A stretch of 63,622 nt of DNA, the filler included, from Squatina squatina (taxonomy: Eukaryota): assembly GCA_031763465.1 (NCBI GenBank). It is 4 parts of 4 records of this genome, joined end to end, with 100 filler letters (N's around TTAATTAATTAA, not from the genome) between each part and the next. Parts side by side here need not be neighbours in the genome. Positions count along the whole stretch, not along the records: positions 1 to 18,032 come from JARFOE010000189.1; 3 more parts are not named here. One strand, written 5' to 3'. A program made the translations under genes and the position numbers. Below the pieces are notes generated by a model. That model ran no database searches. It had not been told where the DNA came from and saw nothing but the letters and a program-made list of their open reading frames with translations. Shown here piece after piece: positions 4,123-41,959 of the stretch. Each line of letters begins with the position of its first letter. Position 1 is the stretch's first letter.

Positions 4123-5094
4123 ACAACTACTCAATCCACGCATTTGTTACCTGTAGTGAATTATTGCACTGTTTGGACCTGTGCTGGAGATGGTTGAAAA
4201 ACTCAAGTCTACAAATTTTTCTTGCTGCCTGCAAAACATTAATAAAGGGGTTAAAAAACTCTTTATATTTTGAAATCCATTCCTTAACTGCAGAACTCAA
4301 TACCAAATAAATTGGAAAATGTTTGATATAATTTACCAGTTTTTAATATCAATCTAGCATTTTATTCAACTATCAAATTTCACAATTCCAAAATCTACTC
4401 CAAACCCACATGGTGTGTTTCATCATTAAGAAAATATTCGCTGATTAAAACAGTCAATTCCATTTAACTCAAAGCATCTGATCAATTCAACATGTTAGCA
4501 CTACAAAAAACACTTTATTTCCATTGGTTCTTTCAAATTATTGAATAATTACATTTTCTGGTGCAAAATAAAACAGCTTCAAATTATGAGTAGATTGTAG
4601 ATGGGAAATGTGATCCAACATAGAATGCATGATATATTTCATGGCCCGCCCTCACCCCCACCTCATCACATGCTAATCTTTCTGGACCACATACTTACCC
4701 TGAAAGGCAGCAGATGGCTGGCCTGTCTCCAGACCTCCGCCCATGGAGCTTTATAATTCAGCGCAGGAAGGAGCTTAAGAATGCACCGTGAAACTCTCTC
4801 TTCAGTATTTCCTTCTTTGCTGCACTTAATCCCCTACTCAGCTAATATCCTTCGCTCCCAATGGGGTAAGTGTTCCTTTGTGTGTGACAACATCATTAAG
4901 AACAAGATTACGACTTTGCTACACTCAAGTGTCCCGTATGGGGAATGGGGAGTGTAAACCTATGTCCTATCGTTCCTCATCACTTTGCATTACAGCGCCA
5001 TTAGATAATAGAGAGACTGTAAACGACGAATGACCAAAATTCAATCTCATTCTTGCAGAAGCTTCATAAACCTCACTGATTTCACACTGCAGGT

Positions 5095-5293
5095 TAGGGA
5101 TTTACACAAACTAGGGTTTTATTCCCTAGAATTTAGAAGGTTAAGCGGTGATCTGATCAAAGTTTTCAGGATATTAAGGAGAGCAGATAAGTTGGATAGA
5201 AAGAAACTATTTTGCTTGCTTGGGAGTCTGGGACTCACGGGCAGTCTAAAAATTAGAGCCAGGCCTTTCAGGAGTGAAATTAGGAAACACTTC
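5095..5293 (+). mobile_element. CR1 LINE 3' ORF2 fragment
   Basis: LHKLGFYSLEFRRLSGDLIKVFRIL...FRSEIRKHF matches the CR1 ORF2 C-terminus. Confidence 0.85.
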
Positions 5294-5968
5294 NNNNNNN
5301 NNNNNNNNNNNNNNNNNNNNNNNNNNNNNNNNNNNNNNNNNNNNNNNNNNNNNNNNNNNNNNNNNNNNNNNNNNNNNNNNNNNNNNNNNNNNNTCTCAGA
5401 GTCAAATATGACATCAAGGTTGCGAAAAGTGCTGTTCAGTCTCAGACAGTTGCCAGAGAGATCGAGTCGGTGGCAAGGGAATGGAGTTAGTGACAGGGTC
5501 CAAAGACAATGGCTTCTGTCTTCTCAATATTTAGTTGATATTTAATTTTTTTCCTCATTTCCATACGGAAATGCTGCTTGTTTTTCTGATGCAAAGTTAA
5601 TCTAATAAATAGTTTAATAATATTTTGCATTGATCTGTAATCATTATTGCTCAGAGTTTGATGAATTTCGGTAAAATTTTGTAGCTGCACTTTGCTCCTT
5701 CGATAAGGCCAGATGATGGGGCTCAGTCACGGAATGATTCTAGTATGATTCTGGCAAGTCAGTTATGAGCTCAAATCCTACTATGACAATTGAGAAAATC
5801 CAGCCACTTGAGAACCAGCACTAGAAAAAAATAATAAAAACTTCAGAATTATACCAAATGTCTTCCGACCATCAATGATATTTACTCAGATTAAACTTTA
5901 TTTTATTGAACTCTGGCTTGCGACAAAGTACAAGGAGACAGAAGGTTTCCAACAGAGAACAGACTTAC

Positions 5969-6112
5969 CAGTATAACTGAGATCCATAACCAACAGAGGT
6001 TTACAAGGTCGGCTAGGCTGGTCCTTCCAAATCACATCGACAAGGTTTTCTCTGACAGGCACAAGGGAATGCCCTGCGCTCCTCAGTGCTTTAGACAGGT
6101 TCTTCCATTGAT
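5969..6112 (-). CDS. XPNPEP1: Xaa-Pro aminopeptidase 1 internal exon (144 bp)
   Basis: tttttcag|ATCAATGG...ACTG|gtaagt. Encodes [49 protein letters not shown]. Phase 1-1, in frame with the upstream exon. Confidence 0.95.
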
Positions 6113-6506
6113 CTGAAAAATAAACACAGTACGTCCCAACACACCGGCTAATGGACACAGAAATGTAGTAAACGCCACGTTGTGATCTCTCCATTCACCA
6201 CCTTAGTTTGACCATCCCAACAGGACAGCAAACAGAGCCCCTGAAAAAACAAATACTTCTTAAAACTTTAAAGGCCAATGCTTCTTGCCANNNNNNNNNN
6301 NNNNNNNNNNNNNNNNNNNNNNNNNNNNNNNNNNNNNNNNNNNNNNNNNNNNNNNNNNNNNNNNNNNNNNNNNNNNNNNNNNNNNNNNNNTTTTTTTGAT
6401 TTTAACATGTTATACAACTTAACACACAAGGGGGAAAGAAATGAATGTATGGAAATAAGAGGTGATCCTTTTTAAAATATTAGGGCAGTATATGCATTGT
6501 ACTTAC

Positions 6507-6599
6507 CAGCTGCAATCACAAAAGGATCCACGCCAACCTTTGACCCTTCAGGGAGTACCTTTACTAGCCAATCTTCCTGGCTAAGCGTGGTCTTCAGAC
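6507..6599 (-). CDS. XPNPEP1: Xaa-Pro aminopeptidase 1 internal exon (93 bp)
   Basis: gtattgtag|GTCTGAAG...GCTG|gtaagt. Encodes [31 protein letters not shown]. Confidence 0.95.
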
Positions 6600-7342
6600 C
6601 TACAATACAAGGGGGAACAGATTCAGAAATAAATGCGTACATCAAGTGTTGACACAGATTTTCCACCTCAGAATAGTAGGCAGGCATCAAACAGTTTGAG
6701 TGTTACATTGGCCTATCAATTTAGCATAACACACAACCTGAAAGGAGGAAAACTTGCAGAAAACTGAAGGCCAGTGTCCAGTAACAGTGATATTGAAAGC
6801 TTTTCAGTGAGATTGAGGTGTGTGTACAGCCACAAACATGCTGCAATATAAATAAAATAACACTTTATCCAAGCTTCCCAGTAATGTAAGAGAATGCTTA
6901 TAAAACTGAAGCTCATCAATCTACAACAGGGTAAGGCAAGTAAAATTACTCTATTTAACAGATCATCCCCATCAAATAAGTCTGATCAGCATCAGGGGAA
7001 AGAGCAGGGGTGTGGCACTAATTGGGTAGCTCTTTCAAAGAGTCGGTACAGGCACGAATGGCTTCCTTCTGTGCTGTATAATTCTATGATTCTACTGGTT
7101 TGCACACATTCCAGAAATCATGTGCATTGTATAAATCTTCTTCCTAAGGGTCGTAAAATACCTTGGCTAATTTCTTACGTTAGTGCTGATCCTAACGATG
7201 GACAGAATACCTTAAATCTGATTTTATCCTGACCCTGCTACACTGGAATTCCTGCAACCTGTTCAGTAATACAATCAAGTATTAATAAATACACACACCT
7301 AATCTCTCAGCCGCTAAAGTGTTGCTTTAGCTATTCACTCAC

Positions 7343-7447
7343 CCAATTTCATCAGGGTCCAGTTGTCATCCATTTGCTGGGCAGCCTGAAGGAAGTAACG
7401 ACCGTCTGTCCACATTGCTGCATGTGCCTCCGTTACAATCGCAGTGC
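7343..7447 (-). CDS. XPNPEP1: Xaa-Pro aminopeptidase 1 internal exon (105 bp)
   Basis: cctgtag|GCACTGCG...TTGG|gtgagt. Encodes [36 protein letters not shown], containing the aminopeptidase P WTDGRY motif. Absent from the supplied ORF track. Confidence 0.96.
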
Positions 7448-8830
7448 CTACAGGCAAACCAAATTACAAGCTCTCAACACATTTCTTCATTGCTTACAAC
7501 TAAAACACAAAACACAGTCAGGATCGCGGTTCTCACTCGCCGGGAGCAGAAAAAAAAATCCCTCAACACAGCCAACCAATTTATTTGCATTGAAATGAAT
7601 GGACAGAAAATTGTGGAATATTCACACACCATTTCTTGATGTGCAAGCCCAACAGCTGGTAGAGTGAGGAAAGGATGAAAGTCATCACAGAATAANNNNN
7701 NNNNNNNNNNNNNNNNNNNNNNNNNNNNNNNNNNNNNNNNNNNNNNNNNNNNNNNNNNNNNNNNNNNNNNNNNNNNNNNNNNNNNNNNNNNNNNNGCGCG
7801 ATCCAGATCACAACTCGCTGCGTGAATTTTTTTTACCCACCTCCCCTCTGGTTCTTTTTGCCAATCACCTTAAACCTGTTGCCTCTGGTTACCGACCCTC
7901 CTGCCACTGGAACCATTTTATACCCTTTCAGTGCTAAAGAGTCCAAATTTCTCCCTAACTCAGTCATTTGATGCTAGGGATCAGAGTCATGAAGTGTCCT
8001 GTTACCCAAACATCAGCACAGCTCAGTTTGATGAGCACAAACTTCACAAAAGGAAAATGACAAAAGTCAGTATCATTGTTCGGAACACAGTTTGACAACA
8101 GTTACACAGCTATTAATAGTTAAGATAATACCATGAGCAGTACTGCAGAGCCTTTGGTGTGCATACATAATAAATGACATGGCTACATTGAATGTTAATG
8201 AATACTCTATAGTGCGACGTGGAGAGAGATGGTTTCTCCAGGACTGAATAGAATAGGAGCTGTCCCTAACTGCTGTTATCGAAGAAGTGGTGTAACCTTC
8301 CTCTTGCATTGGAGCAATGTGGAAATGTGATCAATTTCTGTCAACACAGAAAAAAGGTAGGAAACCACAAAACATTAACCAATAAAGTTGCAGGAATAAT
8401 TATTTCAACATCAGAAATTCAGTAACCCTGTGTGCAAAGTATTTCAATCTTAGCAAATCAAAGAATTACAGCTTTTATTTAATTATTTCAATAAATAATT
8501 GATTTTAAAACATTGTCCAAGATTACAATTATGTTCATCCTATATTATTATTTTTGAGTTGTTACCATAATTCCATCCCCCCCCACCCCTAAAAAATGAC
8601 CATGTTTTCATACCTGAAGCAGTGGAGTATGTGACTTGTAATCACAAGTTTATGGGGCTGTAATTCCCTTGCCCCATGTTCATGGNNNNNNNNNNNNNNN
8701 NNNNNNNNNNNNNNNNNNNNNNNNNNNNNNNNNNNNNNNNNNNNNNNNNNNNNNNNNNNNNNNNNNNNNNNNNNNNNNNNNNNNNCTGAGGTGAAATAAA
8801 TCAGACAGGTTACCAATTTTTGAATCTTAC

Positions 8831-11925: not shown

Positions 11926-12029
11926 CTATTCAAATACACTGTACAAGACAAGCTGCACCATCAGCGTCAGTATCCAGAAAACAAATTGTTCGACATTCAG
12001 AAAAAGGCCTGGAGCGACATCATTAGGAC
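11926..12029 (-). CDS. cusr: Probable terminal exon of the Cu-only SOD repeat protein (GPI-signal-like hydrophobic tail)
   Basis: ttttaacag|GTCCTAAT... encodes GPNDVAPGLFLNVEQFVFWILTLMVQLVLYSVFE*. Phase 1 matches the 13365-13448 exon on the same contig. Assignment to CSRP is by position, strand and the expected GPI tail. Confidence 0.7.
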
Positions 12030-13364: not shown

Positions 13365-13448
13365 CTGCTGTACATGATTTGGAGGCTTTGAATTTACCCA
13401 GTTTATCTTGTTGTTCTAAATTGTCCAGTTTGCTCTTATCAACATCTC
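13365..13448 (-). CDS. cusr: Probable penultimate exon of the Cu-only SOD repeat protein (84 bp)
   Basis: tcttcttttcag|GAGATGTT...GCAG|gtatgt. Encodes (G)DVDKSKLDNLEQQDKLGKFKASKSCTA(G). Phase 1-1. Confidence 0.7.
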
Positions 13449-13774
13449 CTGAAAAGAAGAAAACATTTTCTCAATTAGAACTGATATAGCTTTGGGGAAC
13501 AGAAGAACATACGAAATAGGAGCAGGAGTAGGCTATTCGGCTCTTTGAGCCTTCTCCACCATTNNNNNNNNNNNNNNNNNNNNNNNNNNNNNNNNNNNNN
13601 NNNNNNNNNNNNNNNNNNNNNNNNNNNNNNNNNNNNNNNNNNNNNNNNNNNNNNNNNNNNNNNGGGAGAAAACTAAAAAGGTAGGAGTTTAGCATTCCAG
13701 AATGCAAGGCCAACCTGGTTGAAGGATTTGCCAATGAATTTGCTTCTCAACTTTGAAATCCATTCAGATCAATA

Positions 13775-14238: not shown

Positions 14239-16086
14239 CGTGATCCATTTGCCTGATAAATAACCAATGAACGTCTTGCAATGCTATGAGGTCCAAACAA
14301 GGGCATGTTCCTGTCCATGTACTTATCAATGTGTTGGTCCAGACCATTCAGTGTTCCAAATTTCCCACTGATATCACCAACTTCATACTGGTCAACTGTA
14401 CCATGTCCTGGCTTGGGAGACAAAGATCCATTCACATGGAATGGGTTGTAACGGCCTTTAAGACTAATGTCAGAACAGGCATCGGTGTTTGAAGAACCGG
14501 TTTTGATGGGAAGTGTGTGGATGTTGTAAGTTCCTGCTTCACCATTCAGATCTGTTAAATTAACATACACAAAAGTACAGTCTAAATCAGAAAGTTGTTT
14601 GAATGCCACATTTCCTCTTACTGTTCCAACACCCCTCCATGAATCAATCTCCATTGAAGCTGGACGAAGAAAGGTTACATTAGCACAAGCTAAGCGAGAG
14701 GATACGCGATTTTCTCCATGAATGACCACTGACCGAGGAGCAATGGACAGTGGCCCAGCAAGTGCTGAAGTACTATCAGTAAAGAAGTACTTAGTGTCAA
14801 CTGCTCTGGTAAGATTGGTGAGCTTTATTGCTTGATGTTTTTTAGCATAGTCACCAACTTCACATCGGAAAGGGCTGTCCGGGCTACACTCCATGTTATA
14901 CTGATGACCAACATCTACTTTGAAAGGGTTAAAATGCCCCTTGGTACTTAAGCAAATGTTTGAGTCAGAATCCAACTCAGAGCTGATTGGGTNNNNNNNN
15001 NNNNNNNNNNNNNNNNNNNNNNNNNNNNNNNNNNNNNNNNNNNNNNNNNNNNNNNNNNNNNNNNNNNNNNNNNNNNNNNNNNNNNNNNNNNNNNNNNNNN
15101 NNNNNNNNNNNNNNNNNNNNNNNNNNNNNNNNNNNNNNNNNNNNNNNNNNNNNNNNNNNNNNNNNNNNNNNNNNNNNNNNNNNNNNNNNNNNNNNNNNNN
15201 NNNNNNNNNNNNNNNNNNNNNNNNNNNNNNNNNNNNNNNNNNNNNNNNNNNNNNNNNNNNNNNNNNNNNNNNNNNNNNNNNNNNNNNNNNNNNNNCTTCT
15301 AAAAAGCCATGTCTTCCACTCAAGTCCCCTATTTCATACTGATCATGGGTTTCGTTTGTGTCTCGGGGGTAGGAAGGACTGGATGAAACCTTCCCAAATG
15401 GATCCCAGTGCCCTCCTAGATTATCATTTCCACAAAGCTTATCTTCTGGGGTACGGCGCTGAGGCACTGGGAAATTGTGGACATGGTAGGCACGAGCCAA
15501 CTGTTGCAGATTCATCAAAGACACAGTGTAGTCCGTGGCATCAAATGGGGAAACTTGACGAAACATTAAAGTTCCTTTGACAGCGTTCATATCTATGTAA
15601 GCCCAGACCTGCTTTGCTCCGACCGCCTGAACTTCAGTGCAAGCCCACTCGCTGCCATCGTACATGTATAGGAATTGTTTGCGGCTCCTGTCTGGTAGAG
15701 TGACCCCATCACTGCGACTTTTTATAGGATTTAAAGGGATGCCCACTTTGAACGTGCCGAGCAAAGTCCAATTGTTCGGCCCGTTGATCTGTGCTGGTGG
15801 GGTACAACTCGCTGCCCCTACTTGCAGGTACAGAGACACGTTCATTTCCACCTTGCTGTTGTTAATCGCCATCAGATCGGTCAGTATCCTTGCCGAGCTC
15901 TCTTCATCATTCTGGCGGATGTAGACATCTCCGGCTATGGAGCAGAAAAATTTCCCCTGCCAGGTCTTGGTGTTCCCAACTTTCCTTATAGTGCCACATG
16001 CTTTACGTGCGTTTCCACAGCCCTCAATGATGACTGTCAGATCGGAGAGGTCAGATTTGAGCTGGAAAAGCCGGCTCTCCATCAGT
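14239..16086 (-). CDS. cusr: Large exon of a Cu-only superoxide dismutase repeat protein (CSRP); 5' end lies in a gap
   Basis: Tandem SOD1-fold repeats: YHVH...GGHWDPF...YEIGDLSGRHG; GHFNPF...CEVGD...RSVVIHG...RLACANV; YNIH...GRYNPF...YEVGDISGKFG...RRSLVIY. These show the E-x-G-D motif and short loop VII of Cu-only SODs. Donor CG|gtaag at 14238. The 303-N internal gap preserves the frame. Confidence 0.9.
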
Positions 16087-16369
16087 NNNNNNNNNNNNNN
16101 NNNNNNNNNNNNNNNNNNNNNNNNNNNNNNNNNNNNNNNNNNNNNNNNNNNNNNNNNNNNNNNNNNNNNNNNNNNNNNNNNNNNNNAAGTGTGCGGAAGG
16201 GGGCTGAATAATAAAAGTTAAGTGAAAGTTCATATGAATAAATTCTGTTTGTGTAAAGAAAGGTGTAATTTCATCTCTATTTAATGAGTGTTGTGCTGGA
16301 TCAGTGCAGAGCATCAAATGAAAGGGCAACTGTGATGCATGTACCATTATGTGACAGCGGAGGCTAAAT

Positions 16370-19270: not shown

Positions 19271-22189
19271 ACATGCTTATATTTCAAGTAATAACGAACA
19301 AGTAGGGACACAGTTTTGGGAGCAGTTTCAGAGTGCAATTACTTCATGTAATCCAGCAAATATATACTCATTCCTTTGTTATAGAACCTGCTATAAGTCA
19401 ACAGTGAAGCTAAAGACACATTTGAAACCGAACTGATTCTGTCAACAGGCTTTGTCCTCTAGGTATGAGATTTCCAATTCCCTAGATCCAGTAATTACTG
19501 TATATTTTATAGAAGATTAGGCAAACAAGTACTAATTGAGTTCCTGGATGACAGCCAAACTGTCACTACATACACACACAAGGCTGAAGACATGCAACTT
19601 AAAGGAAAGGTGTTAAACAAGTGGCTATTTGGTTGTAGCCTCACGTCATACTTATATATTCCAAAGACAACTGGAGTTAAATTAGAATGGAATCTTAAAC
19701 TAGTAACACAAATTAAAAGAAATTTGAGTTCTCTGTCAATTTGTATCAAAAGGGGGGGTTGGATTTTAACTCCATCCACCTGATGGGAGTAGGGTTGCCA
19801 GCTTTGGTTGTGTGTATTCTTGAAGGTTTCATCACATGACCTTCCACCTCCAACTGGGAGAAGTGGCCAACAGTGTTGGCGTCNNNNNNNNNNNNNNNNN
19901 NNNNNNNNNNNNNNNNNNNNNNNNNNNNNNNNNNNNNNNNNNNNNNNNNNNNNNNNNNNNNNNNNNNNNNNNNNNNNNNNNNNAAACATCAGGATCCTAT
20001 TGACCTCATACGACCCCGGTTTAAATAACTAACTGAGCTGTGTGTTTGCTTCAGGTGGCCCCGTGGTCTGTCTATTCCAGGGAGCCCCTCTACTGTGCAG
20101 GCAAGTTGGACGATTACAGGACTGGATGTGCACCCTCAGCCTTCAAATTATGCTGACTATTTTCAGTTTTTTGATATAGTACAGCTGGTTAGCTTAAGTT
20201 TTGGATCATAGACATTTATAGCGCAGGAGGAGGCCAATTAGCCCGTCATTCTCTGTGCTGACTCTGCTTGAACAATCCAAAGCTAATCCTACTGCCCTGC
20301 AATCAATATTGAGCCAAAAGTCTACATGACCTTTACCGTTATGAAGACAAATGCTCTCCCTTGTGTTGGAAATCAGTGGTGTCCAAAATATATATGGTTA
20401 TGCAAACAAAACTGTGACGTGAATCATGCTGTGTTTGCATAATTGTGTTAGAACTGGAGACAAAATGTCTCCTCAGGCCAGTATTAGAGTAATTAGATAG
20501 GTGCTTGGAATGTGCTAATCTTTTGGTTTCTTTAAGAAGTTTCTTAAAAATTGTTTTGGTTACAGCATCCTGCACTTTGACAGCTATACATGATCTTGTT
20601 TCCAAGCAACTATCTGTTATTTTCAAGTTAGGATTTCAACTTTGTTTAGATATCTTTAATTGAACCAACTAAGCTCTATATTATTACGAAGAATCAAGTT
20701 ATAATTAAAAGTTGATTGGTATAGAAAGGCTTAGAATGGAATGAATTTGGAGCAGTTAAAATATCCATTTCAGAATCGAGCAGTTTGTTAGATTAAAAGG
20801 AGATAATGAACGGCAGGAGGGAGACAACTCTAGCTAGGGCCTCATGATTGATAAGGTACAAGACAAGGCATGCTAGGGACCAGAGAGATAAGACATAACT
20901 TCCAAAGGAAGAGCCATCAGAAAGTTTAAACAAGATAAATTGGCTGAGACCATGAGGCCCCTATTGGAGGAGGGCTTTAAGTCAAGAATAGAGACAAAGA
21001 ACTCAACACCTCATTGGGTAATAAGTTTAAAGGGAACATCCATAGGTTGAATAGTCTTGTCAATATCTCATTACAGGCCCACCCCTAAAAAGAGAATAAA
21101 AGTAGCACCCCGAGGGTCTAACTGAGCAGACAGTGATGGGGAGAACCATACAGAAGTTGGGCTGGTCGAACGCTCTTTCGAGAGTGATCCCATGCTCACC
21201 AAAGGAAATTCTGGATGAGAGGAAGACAGGCCACAAGCCAGAAAACTGTTCACGTGCGCCAACCGTTTGTCCGATTGTGATCTACTTGTTACGGTTGTAT
21301 GTTTTTGCTATATAACTAGTGTGTTACATACCATCTGAAACTCTAATTAAACACAATATACCCATCATATTGGTTTACAGTCAATTCTGACTACTAAAGT
21401 GACCAGAGATAGCCATAAAGTGGTTATTTAATACACTTGAGTCCCCCAGACTTTCCTTGTCCACTAATTACTTTATATATTACAGGTAAAGTTCTGCATA
21501 GTTGTTTTAGTCACAAAAGGAATTAGATTTTCAACTTACTGCCCAGGCTTTAAACTCGTTCTCTTGGTCGGCCACCATAACTTCGCCAGAAATCCCATGG
21601 ACGTGTAAACAGGGTTTTCCACTGATCTTGGGAGAATCTCCGAGGAAATTTCCGATAATACAATTTATACTTTCATTTGATTACATGGTGCAAAGTTTAT
21701 CACATTGTTGAGTTGTCAATCAATGTGTATCCCACTTATACATTTAAAAATGCCAGTAACCTATCTTGTAATTATAATTTGCCTAATTTTTTTTCTGGGT
21801 AGGCTCATTAGAAAATAAAGCAGTGAGATGAAATAAACGGCTGGTATAATTGCAGTCAGTGAGTAACAACAAATTTGTCATTTAGTCTGCCTCTTCTTCC
21901 ATCACTCTTGCTTAAATGATTCTGTGAAATCAGACAAAAGACACTAATTAATCAAACCAGTTGGCTCTGTGCACCGACAGCACATCTGGCTGTGGAAAGG
22001 TAAAGAAGTGGATAACAATAGTCAAGCTGCCTTTTTCCCTTCCAAAGGTTTGGAACAGTCTGTTACAGTCAGCAGAGCAGATGGCAGCGGCCATTCAGCA
22101 CAAATGTTGTAACTGGATGAAGGCAGAGTTAAACTCGACATACCTTCACTTTGCCAGCTGAACTGACAAACTGCTTTTGTTGGGTTATT

Positions 22190-22505
22190 GGACCAGGAGG
22201 AGGCCTTTCAGCCCCTCAAACCTGTTGCATAGAAACAGGAGGAGGCCGTTCAGCCCCTCGAACCTGTTGTATAGGAACAGGAGGAGGCCATTCAACCCCT
22301 CGAGCCTGTTACATAAGAACAGGCATAGGCCATTCAGCCCCTCAAACCTGTCACATAGGAACAGGCATAGGCCATTCAGCCCCTTGAGCCTGTTACATAG
22401 AAACAGGTGGAGGCCATTCAGCCCCTCAAACCTGTCACATAGGAACAGGTGGAGGCCATTCAGCCCCTCGAACCTATTACATAGGAACAGGCGGAGTCCA
22501 TTCAG
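22190..22505. repeat. Minisatellite, about 7.5 copies of a 42-bp unit derived from a LINE 3' tail
   Basis: The unit is approximately AGGAACAGGAGGAGGCCATTCAGCCCCTCGAACCTGTTACAT. Its reverse complement matches the CR1 tail at about 57344-57385. Confidence 0.92.
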
Positions 22506-24857
22506 ATGTTGTAATATAGTTTTTGTAAAGATCTGTGACCTGTTAGAGATTAAATAAAGCCACTNNNNNNNNNNNNNNNNNNNNNNNNNNNNNNNNNNNN
22601 NNNNNNNNNNNNNNNNNNNNNNNNNNNNNNNNNNNNNNNNNNNNNNNNNNNNNNNNNNNNNNNNACAGCACCATTCCACCACCCATGTGCAGAGAAAATG
22701 TGCATACCACAGTCATAAATGATCTATTTAAAGTACTGTAGAACCACCCAGCTCAGCCTGTTTTCTTATGGCCCACTGAGGCAGAATAATACCTAGCTGA
22801 CCGTACAAATCAGCTTCCTTCTCAAAGAACAAAACCAGTGTATCCTTCCTGACAGAGTACCAGCTTTCCTGATGCAACCTTCAATTTAGTTACAAAATAA
22901 GAAAGGATGCTTGAAAGACTGATACGCCAATAATTACTGGGATCAGTAAACATAGCTGTTCGGTACACGTGGTTGGTTCAGTCCTCAAAATAAAAATGTT
23001 CTCGGCCAATTAAAGTTGCTTTTAACTGTGGCCTAATCGGTGGTTGCGCCAATCAATCACATAGTCTTTTCTAAAGAAGTTATCCTGTCATTTTTCTGTA
23101 GCCGTACTTTACAGAATAAGAACGTATGCTCTTTACAATAATCTAGGAGAATGACGTAGCCAGCCCCTTACTGTTCCTATTAGACAGCATAATAAAGAAA
23201 GGTGGTGTCACTCACAATGAATAACACCAGAGAATAACTTGATCCAATTTCTAACTATGTCCAGAACTGGTTTCAGAGCCCAGAGTTAACAACTGTCAGA
23301 AGGACGTGGAGGTCCCTTCAAGTTGANNNNNNNNNNNNNNNNNNNNNNNNNNNNNNNNNNNNNNNNNNNNNNNNNNNNNNNNNNNNNNNNNNNNNNNNNN
23401 NNNNNNNNNNNNNNNNNNNNNNNNNNACACCAGATTTATGGAGATTTTAAAACTGGTGTTTTCTTTCCTCCGTTATTGCACTTACTTATGCAGAATATAA
23501 AGAAGTTTATTTTTTTAATCTGTTGAAAAAATATGTTTAACTTAAATTTAGATACAAATTGGGTATTTCCACAACTGGCTTTTTACATTTTTCATTAAAA
23601 CTATAGTCTGAATGTAAATTATATTGTGCTTGTTTTCTCTGGAGTGCCTTGAGGCAGTTTTCAAAGTTAGAGGTGGTATATAAAGACAAATTGTTATATC
23701 ATTTCCTCGAATCAGTTTTTGAGCATTGCTCAATAGACTTGCAGTATTAAATCACGTTCATCCTTCAGTATAGAATAACATGGATGCACAACCTAGAGTA
23801 TAATGATCATTAATGTTCTCCTTGACACATGCCACCAGTAAAAATGCTAAAGAACAAAGGATGAAATCAAACTGCCCTGTGAACTTCACAGTATGTATAT
23901 ATTGTACAAACGTCACATACACGCAAAAGCGATTACTGCACAATCATTTTAGCTTGAGAAAATTGCTGCAAACACTTCAGTGTTGCTCGAGGTTTATGGT
24001 GTGATTATTCAGTCTCGTAATCACCCTCAACCACTTAGTTTGTTCTCTCTTTTCCCCATCAGTCTAAATTATGAGTCAAAATTATAATTTGGCAGCTGGA
24101 AATGCTATTTCACAACTGATAATAGAAAACAATGTACAGACTGAGTGACGGAACAGCTTTTCAGTTTCAAACGCCACATGACGAGCATGACATACTGTGA
24201 TTGGCCATGTCTGAAGTACTTGGCCTGGCATCTAAATACTGGAGTGCAGCTAGCCTGGGTCTGCTGGCACAGCTTCTTTTGGGACTAGGAGCCTTCACCA
24301 CCAGCATTACATCTGCCAACGTGAGGTCTTTTCACCTCTTCCTGCAGATGTGGGTGTGTCAGTACAGCCGAAAGGACACAGAGCACCACTCAGGCAGCCT
24401 GACTTGCCTGGCATTCTTCCATAGTCCTTCCTCTTCTTCCAAACACATCAGCTTGTTGATAAACACATTGATGCCAGAAAAAGGAGATGGGGCAACAAAA
24501 AATAAAGAAGAATTAATGACAACTGGCAAAAATAACGGTAATGAAAGCCTACTTGCCAGCAGAAAAGAAAGAAGGAAACAATGATTAAAAAGGCCCCCAA
24601 ATAGCCTAAAATACACTTGCCTGAAATACTTAAATGCTTTCCCCCTGAAAGCCCACCACAAGCCATCCTTTCAACCAGGTTTTGTAGGCATGCTTTAAGC
24701 TTGACGTTCAGCCACCTACCAGCCAGAAAATAGGCCAGGGGTCTTTCATGCCTGATTNNNNNNNNNNNNNNNNNNNNNNNNNNNNNNNNNNNNNNNNNNN
24801 NNNNNNNNNNNNNNNNNNNNNNNNNNNNNNNNNNNNNNNNNNNNNNNNNNNNNNNNN

Positions 24858-40291: not shown

Positions 40292-40976
40292 CTGCAGAAT
40301 AAAAGAGGGCATCAGACTGTGCCACTGCCACAACAACTGGCATTTATATAGCACCTTTACAGGAGCATTATCAGACAAAATTTGACACCAACTCACAAAA
40401 GGAGATGAAGGCACTGCCGCCAATGGTGGAGCGATTAACAAAGGGGATGTTCAAGAGGCCCAGAATAGGAGGGGCGCAGAGATCTTGGAAGGTTGCAGGC
40501 AAGATTTCCTATAAGCTGCATAGCTCTCTGCCAGTCCCGCACAGTCAGAGACTGGCTTTTTCAACGGTAAGTGTCACACATGCGCGAAAATGTGAATGGG
40601 TTTCACAACCCCTTAAAGGGGCCGGCTGGAATACAGAGAGGTGGCAGTGATGTAACAGTTACACAGAGCTCTGGTTAGACCCCATCTGGAGCACTGTGTT
40701 CAGTTCTGGACACACCCTCACATCAGTCAGGGCTACACCAGCCAGTCCCCAAAAAGTATCTGTGGGAGCAATTGTTGATGCATATCGCAAACTGCAGCAA
40801 TTAAGCCTATTGCTGCCAATAGGATTGTAATTTGGCCTGTAGTAAAAAGGGCAGAATTAAAAATGTGCAATAAGCAAGCACAGAACTGCAGTGGTACAGA
40901 AGGAAGTTACTGTCTAAAATAACCAGTTCTGACCAAACTTCAGGTCAATCTTTCGTTTCGAAAAAGGAGACTATAC

Positions 40977-41159
40977 CTGGCCAGGTTGTGCATTTCCTTT
41001 TCTGCCCACATGCGGATGATTTTGCGAGGGTTCAACTTGCTAAAGCGATCTTTGAATCTGTAATCGTCCTTGATGTACTTATCGCGGTTTTTGAACTCAT
41101 TCAGTGTCGTCTTAAAAACCTTGATGGCACACTCTGAGGGAACCATTTTTTCATCCATG
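40977..41159 (-). CDS. RIOK3: RIO kinase 3 exon (183 bp)
   Basis: ttctgtag|CATGGAT...GCCAG|gtatag. Encodes MDEKMVPSECAIKVFKTTLNEFKNRDKYIKDDYRFKDRFSKLNPRKIIRMWAEKEMHNLAR. All four exons join in frame. Confidence 0.97.
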
Positions 41160-41959
41160 CTACAGAAGCAGAAAGAGGAATAAACTACATAGAAAATAGG
41201 AGCAGGAGTCGGCCATTCGGCCCTTCGAACCTGCTCCGCCATTCAATATGACCATGGCTGATCATCCAAATTCAGTACACTGTNNNNNNNNNNNNNNNNN
41301 NNNNNNNNNNNNNNNNNNNNNNNNNNNNNNNNNNNNNNNNNNNNNNNNNNNNNNNNNNNNNNNNNNNNNNNNNNNNNNNNNNNTTGCTGCGGGCTTGCTG
41401 CCACACTGGTGTCTGTTAACAATCAGCTCTGCTCATAGTTTTCATCCATCTCTTTAACTTTTTATGCAAAATTGCAGTACTTGTGTATCAAATCTAGCTC
41501 GGTGCGGTAAGTGTAGAGATTCGCAGTATGTGCTGACAGGCCAAATGACTCACCCTTGTGATCATTAATTAGGGTGAAAGTGAATTAATGTAGAAGTGGT
41601 CAGTCATCTATTTAGAAATGTATGTTGACATTCACCGCAACATTGATGTTTCCAAATGTATCTGGAGCGCTCTGCCGCCAACCTCTTGCTGTAACCCTGG
41701 CATCCAACTGTTTCATGCGATCATGTGGCACAGTTCTCATGCTGGAACTAACTAATGTGAGATTGTGTATTCTTCCAGTAAGTTATGGCAACGGGATACT
41801 GTTTTCCCCATTTCCATGTGGCCAGTGATCTAATTAAAATTGCTGTTGTGTTGATTGATGGCCCCTTGTTTCTGTCAATTTGCACCTAGTCATACACTTT
41901 ATATAGAGCTGCAATTGCCAGTCAGGCCCACAAATTGTAACCGAGTGATTTGCGTTGTG

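Follow-up and report, generated by a model that had tools for sequence, protein, structure and literature searches.

A Cu-only-SOD-like repeat without an intact copper site in the cusr (CSRP/SOD4) protein of Squatina squatina and other cartilaginous fishes

Animal CSRP proteins, also called cusr or SOD4, are tandem arrays of repeats related to Cu-only superoxide dismutases (SODs). According to the available text of a 2026 review, many of these repeats, not all, have an intact copper site, and the N-terminal repeats never have one. The review defines the E110/D113 signature of Cu-only SODs in its section 6 and proposes that the repeats without copper are folding or structural helpers (PMC13017621). 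The original prediction on the DNA studied here had called the function of the family poorly known, which is partly dated. In the accessible parts of two further papers a recombinant oyster CSRP shows SOD activity, with the active-site arginine marked (PMC12217663), and knock-down of sod4 in Xenopus blocks regeneration of the tadpole tail (PMC10416458). The Xenopus paper gives the name SOD4, reports that every vertebrate it analysed has three SOD domains, and describes the loss of CSRP in amniotes; the oyster paper cites three copper-site repeats for zebrafish.

Cartilaginous fishes are represented in this literature, with Callorhinchus in Table S1 of PMC13017621 and Heptranchias in the oyster tree of PMC12217663, and the chondrichthyan pattern may already be drawn in Fig. 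2B of the former and Fig. 1 of the latter. The main text of PMC13017621 contains neither Arg143 nor arginine, the word histidine is absent from the text of PMC10416458 as far as it was available, and cusr is absent from the main text of the shark skin proteome paper. Literature searches, with most subscription papers outside reach, returned no per-repeat ligand loss in cartilaginous fishes. A repeat without its histidines is thus a known kind in this family, while the position pattern of repeats 5 and 6 (R5 and R6) was not found in print in the accessible sources.

The window is the whole stretch of DNA analysed (63,622 nucleotides from Squatina squatina), and its cusr stretch lies at G000:C189. 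One cusr locus was found in the genome (7/7 candidates scored); the best genome-wide matches to cusr were this locus and, on small contigs, exons that the scaffold lacks. The gene is 85% identical to annotated shark cusr, of which it is an orthologue. The window gene passes as a CSRP, with Pfam Sod_Cu matches in both exon halves; the orthologue has four Pfam stretches and two N-terminal barrels. The last exon encodes a hydrophobic C-terminal tail (helix 972-993 in the orthologue model), and orthology with vertebrate cusr was found both in the per-repeat tree and in the aminopeptidase-P-like exons downstream. These exons lie on the minus strand at 4150-7463 and belong to a gene that is, by its Pfam accessions, presumably xpnpep1-like. 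A teleost annotation (P0107) fuses cusr with an aminopeptidase-P-like protein, and conserved synteny of the two genes is suggested. Five teleost cusr annotations (P0001-P0004 and P0007, 1751-1923 aa) contain two copies of the repeat set and are either annotation-merged tandem duplicates or true doubled arrays. Elsewhere in the window, a kinase-like exon frame on the minus strand at 40943-41242, in another of the joined stretches, resembles what we take to be RIOK3, and a tandem array of units of about 42 bases at 22162-22554 has repetitive open frames on both strands.

The features of the cusr locus are given in Table 1. The minus-strand frame stays open from 16085 to 14238, through the 303-N gap, and the large exon has its GT donor at 14238-14237; its 5' edge is concealed by an N gap at 16087-16186. 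The exon is 82-87% identical to cusr of Heptranchias and Pristiophorus, and 103 residues lie between the motifs flanking the 303-N gap in the window and in the orthologues P0005 and P0006 alike. Two of the missing exons were located on small contigs (G000:C617833 and G000:C518082), and the first of these carries the WHVH of R6 (945-1001). For the rest of R6 the genome searches gave only this short fragment, the exon after the large one, with the end of R5 and its second cysteine, was not found in the assembly, and the first exon with the signal peptide was found neither in the window nor in seven flanking loci nor in the genome search. Because the assembly is so fragmented (1,152,659 contigs), the unfound parts of R6 and the unfound first exon do not imply loss, and the whole-protein picture for Squatina squatina was taken from orthologues. 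After R6, a small alpha/beta domain without a Pfam match was modelled confidently (P0006 residues 874-962), encoded at G000:C518082 431-574 and by the penultimate exon at 13365-13448. Its structural look-alikes, including KIAA0319 and ALE2_N regions, reached TM values of 0.56-0.68, all below the naming bar, and the fold may be SEA-like.

Table 1. Positions of cusr features in the Squatina squatina window
Feature	Position	Strand	Detail
Large coding exon of cusr/CSRP	14239..16085	minus	end of R1, R2, R3, R4, most of R5
Visible R3	15296..15617	minus	YHVH, GHWDP, EIGD; fourth His and Arg inside gap
303-N gap within large exon	14993..15295		frame and length agree with orthologues
Visible R4	14676..14992	minus	GHFNP, EVGD, SVVIH, Arg; HxH inside gap
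R5, Cu-only-SOD-like barrel without intact Cu site	14239..14663	minus	last strand in next exon
R5 ligand site 1, Asn replacing His	14523..14525	minus	codon AAC, motif YNIH 14528-14517
R5 ligand site 2, His retained	14517..14519	minus	
R5 ligand site 3, Arg replacing His	14451..14453	minus	codon CGT, motif GRYNP 14456-14442
R5 EVGD, E110/D113-type Cu-only SOD signature	14373..14384	minus	
R5 ligand site 4, Tyr replacing His	14256..14258	minus	codon TAT, motif SLVIY 14270-14256
CG, first two bases of split active-site Arg codon	14239..14240	minus	R5 GSR motif
100-N gap	13564..13663		exons for R5 end, R6 and following domain missing from scaffold here
Penultimate cusr coding exon	13365..13448	minus	AG/GT edges seen in sequence
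Last cusr coding exon	11926..12029	minus	hydrophobic C-terminal tail and stop

R5 of this six-repeat protein reads N-H-R-Y at the four ligand positions. The motifs, codons and open frame reported for it in the original prediction were exact, EVGDISG is intact, and the first cysteine is present, the second belonging to the next exon. R3 and R4, the two preceding repeats, do keep every visible histidine. The original prediction called it the last SOD repeat in the large exon, which holds for that exon, but in the protein it is the fifth of six. A profile-to-structure alignment matched its columns to the His motifs of Candida SOD5 (YHVH, HFNP, SIVIH) and to those of SOD1. When R5 of the window was tested as an active Cu-only SOD domain, the four histidine ligands failed, while the E110/D113 signature was present, as was the active-site arginine three residues ahead of the last cysteine (GSR at the exon end). 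The profile alignment to SOD5 and SOD1 placed a glutamate at the zinc-histidine column and gave a short loop from the fourth histidine to the arginine, i.e., no zinc site and a short loop VII.

The R5 model of the window had a pLDDT of 95.6, and its best structural match was SOD5 (4n3t; Z 17.1, rmsd 2.1, 129 residues). The model and this match support a predicted barrel fold with the conserved disulfide in R5. A single-sequence search of the window R5 against the PDB gave 0 matches at E 0.01; the profile search found SOD5. The full-length model of the Pristiophorus protein (pLDDT 90.4, pTM 0.89) was confident throughout the repeats and found SOD5 and SOD1 in the PDB.

For comparison with other species, the best 120 of 241 longer homologues were used. 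Of these, 114 were shorter than 1100 aa and entered an alignment that included the window; the six longer proteins, checked by motif outside the alignment, had intact R5-type HxH and HxNP. Among the matches listed, R5 was non-intact in 15/15 chondrichthyan rows and had all four histidines in 100/100 non-chondrichthyan homologues. Addition of cluster members to the matches listed brought the named chondrichthyans to 22 species, of which 12 are sharks, 9 are batoids and one is a chimaera, and all 22 had an R5 without an intact site. Site 1 was non-His in every species (S, N, G, E or F), site 2 retained histidine in 20, site 3 was R in 18, H in 2, C in 1 and I in 1, and site 4 was tyrosine throughout. 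Pristiophorus had the same N-H-R-Y as the window. The active-site arginine of R5 was present in 12/12 sharks and in the chimaera and was replaced by proline in 9/9 batoids. The first cysteine was found in 15/15 rows and the second in 14/14 orthologues, and several residues, among them D594, L647 and F689 in P0006 numbering, were invariant in the R5 of chondrichthyans but rare outside it. A search for short homologues produced 3 proteins and zero additional chondrichthyan species; the short fragment P0288 reads SLVIH. Stegostoma has a second cusr-like model of 280 aa (P0162, LOC132210777) with the R4/R5 pattern of its full gene.

In the vertebrates sampled for these alignments, loss of R5 ligands was confined to cartilaginous fishes, so the fallback that this repeat is degenerate in all vertebrate CSRPs does not hold. 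It is also old, clade-wide and stepwise. Each of the three codons had been described as one base from a histidine codon, but site 1 is S, G, E or F in other species and the chimaera keeps the site-3 histidine, so the changes were stepwise and clade-wide and not three recent ones.

Tree lengths calculated without the ligand columns for 14 chondrichthyans, which are amino-acid proxies of rate (60 bootstrap replicates, tree topology fixed from general knowledge), were 2.30 (1.96-2.76) for R5 and 2.21, 2.02 and 2.17 for R3, R4 and R6 in the His-intact comparison, while the long Cu-less repeats R1 and R2 had 3.21 and 3.34. Invariant over the 22 species were 46 of 148 columns (31%) in R5, 37-40% in R3, R4 and R6 and 19-20% in R1 and R2; the somewhat lower share in R5 than in R3, R4 and R6 points to some relaxation. 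In decayed repeats outside chondrichthyan R5 the site-2 histidine survived in 47/102, and the remaining sites had histidine in 9, 14 and 15 of 102. In SOD1, His48 forms a hydrogen bond with Gly61 and anchors the disulfide loop, according to the available text of PMC8247289, and the site-2 histidine as the usual survivor is consistent with this bond.

R5 is predicted to keep the SOD5 fold, has the E/D pair and the arginine and evolves about as slowly as the His-intact repeats, which makes a role as a structural pseudo-enzyme unit likely. Judged from sequence and model, chondrichthyan R5 is very probably a folded, metal-free and putatively catalytically dead structural unit of a six-barrel extracellular array. 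From SOD chemistry, one histidine would be unable to hold catalytic copper, and the surviving site-2 histidine would be kept for its structural hydrogen bond. Dismutase activity of the array would come from R3, and from R4 where it is intact.

Re-purposing of R5, in which the x-H-R-Y pocket with the arginine and the E/D pair would bind an anion, a small molecule or a partner protein, appeared improbable. The R5 rate is not raised, sharks retain the arginine and mostly the E/D pair, some residues rare in other repeats are invariant in the R5 of chondrichthyans, and H-R-Y varies little (site-2 His 20/22, site-3 Arg 18/22, Tyr 22/22), as a new ligand site would give. However, with 31% of R5 columns invariant a fixed tyrosine is unremarkable. 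Tyrosine is moreover the commonest site-4 substitute in other decayed repeats (16/102) and arginine the second commonest at site 3 (17/102), site 1 is highly variable (S, N, G, E, F), and batoids are without the arginine. Even less credence is due to metal binding by substitute ligands, i.e., the histidines of PFHV, GHGT, QHID or GPHS. The window R5 does contain five histidines, and that of GPHS occurs in 19/22 species, but the GPHS histidine aligns with the histidine in 'GDHSIIGR' of SOD1, which we take to be outside the canonical copper-ligand set, and the QHID histidine was found in 0/22. The histidines of PFHV and GHGT, which the original prediction had named as ligands that could fill the site, were too poorly conserved, with 5/22 and 0/22 (window only), respectively.

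Contigs X1 and X11, which come from related organisms (90-95% alike; contigs drawn from 4 runs) and are not reads of this individual, span the R5 stretch. Per-kind tallies, worked by hand, showed no difference of a His-giving kind at the three codons in either contig; the Tyr codon is the weakest of the three sites, as the fitted part ends just some 20 bases away from it. X1, X11 and X19 diverge from the genome sequence at 14239-14241, i.e., at the GT donor, and hand translation of X1 and X11 past the donor gave the next exon; the relatives therefore splice the large exon. The other loose end of X1 and X11 yielded the intact HxH of R4. Sequencing or assembly errors, or decay of the gene as a pseudogene in Squatina squatina, are hardly credible as the origin of the R5 changes and already largely refuted, in line with the original prediction's dismissal of sequencing error. 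The assembly is indeed fragmented, and its scaffold lacks several exons. However, Pristiophorus has identical residues and each of the 22 species has lost ligand histidines in R5, the frame is open with splice sites and stop intact, two missing exons were found on small contigs, one with the WHVH of R6, and one cusr locus was found.

In the per-repeat tree, which covered 19 taxa with 75 repeats, the sequences grouped by position, with support of 0.999 for vertebrate R5 and 0.997 for vertebrate R6, and the window R5 grouped with that of Pristiophorus. Shuffling of R5 and gene conversion of R6 from R4 were excluded by this grouping. All of R3 to R6 in amphioxus have four histidines, the E/D pair and the arginine. 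Four lampreys retained R3 to R5 and lost R6, and the gar R6 retained three histidines. Among the matches listed, 96 rows were of the lamprey/bony-vertebrate type, the unnamed ones placed there by similarity; R6 is covered in 87 of them, and 0 of these have its four histidines. The R3 signature was complete in 22/22 named chondrichthyan species and R4 in 3/22 (Heptranchias, Pristiophorus and Callorhinchus). R4 ligands and arginine were lost in the galeomorph sharks and batoids sampled (19/22), with substitutions differing between the groups. In tunicates R5 reads N-H-V-Y in Ciona and G-Y-L-Q in Phallusia, with R6 intact in both. Diverse full-length representatives, 51 of 144 new matches, most of them unnamed and with imperfect alignment of divergent repeats, included 8/51 that score four intact sites in R3 to R6.

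The position pattern in the species compared is that lampreys and bony vertebrates lost R6 and cartilaginous fishes lost R5. By parsimony, the jawed-vertebrate ancestor would have had four histidines in each of R3 to R6, those of R5 then being lost in cartilaginous fishes, while R6 decayed repeatedly in other lineages. The change of R5 site 4 to tyrosine and the loss of the site-1 histidine would fall on or near the chondrichthyan stem, and the change of site 3 to arginine on the elasmobranch stem. The site-3 histidine of Mobula hypostoma would then be a reversion, as M. birostris has arginine. Batoids would later have lost the R5 active-site arginine, and galeomorph sharks and batoids R4 as well. 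The chimaera and elasmobranch lineages separated roughly 400 million years ago.

R6 is the odder domain of the two. All 22 chondrichthyan species have its four histidines and the E/D pair, and 0/22 have the active-site arginine; the position of this residue, which orients superoxide in SODs, is occupied by Leu, Phe or Ile. Four-His repeats outside chondrichthyans had the arginine in 293/293 cases scored in one alignment and in 180/183 in a second, overlapping one. R6 of other vertebrates had it in 0/86 scorable cases (10 unscored). A search with the R6 region returned the same 14 chondrichthyan clusters and 4 others. As R6 lacks the arginine in chondrichthyans and in the other vertebrates scored, the loss of this residue likely dates to the vertebrate stem, the histidines being kept by cartilaginous fishes only.

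A tentative reading of these alignments, less likely to be right than wrong, is that R3 (and R4 in some species) is the dismutase, R5 a metal-free scaffold and R6 a putative non-catalytic copper site that would store the metal or load the array with it. The R6 copper site would then have been under selection since the chimaera split with the catalytic arginine absent, while lampreys and bony vertebrates let the R6 histidines decay and only chondrichthyans kept them. If this were true, galeomorph sharks and rays would have one full enzyme per six repeats. Against a non-catalytic R6 stand a lysine between the fourth histidine and the last cysteine in 22/22 chondrichthyan species and the partial activity retained by Arg143 mutants of SOD1.

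Independently of the role of R6, the clade map shows which repeats to express for measuring copper binding of single repeats, a question open in the available text of the 2026 review (PMC13017621). Natural variants separate the ligands from the arginine, as shark R5 has the arginine without the histidines and R6 the histidines without the arginine. The presence of one or two complete sites in sharks and rays bears on whether the role in regeneration needs SOD activity.

The closest described system is the animal CSRP/cusr/SOD4 family itself (PMC13017621, PMC10416458 and PMC12217663, as far as their text was available), which shares with the window gene an array of six Cu-only-SOD-like barrels, N-terminal repeats without copper, a varying number of intact sites and a hydrophobic C-terminus. 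The array is mixed, as the original prediction had it for this lineage, but mixed arrays are described as usual for the family (PMC13017621, section 8), so the claim was overstated. Internal loss of R5 with R6 kept in cartilaginous fishes is unstated in the accessible text of that review. Candida albicans SOD5 (PDB 4N3T) shares with R5 the fold, the short loop VII, the E/D pair and the arginine three residues before the last cysteine; however, it is an active single-domain enzyme with four histidines, while R5 has one. Domain II of CCS and oyster dominin, as presented in the available text of PMC13017621, are like R5 SOD barrels without an intact copper site, and theirs are non-catalytic, but they belong to the Cu/Zn SOD branch, whereas R5 differs in origin and sits in a tandem array. 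The R6 of bony vertebrates and lampreys and the R5 of tunicates show the same position-specific ligand loss as chondrichthyan R5. By parsimony their decay would be independent of it, because amphioxus is complete in all four repeats and lampreys and bony vertebrates keep R5.
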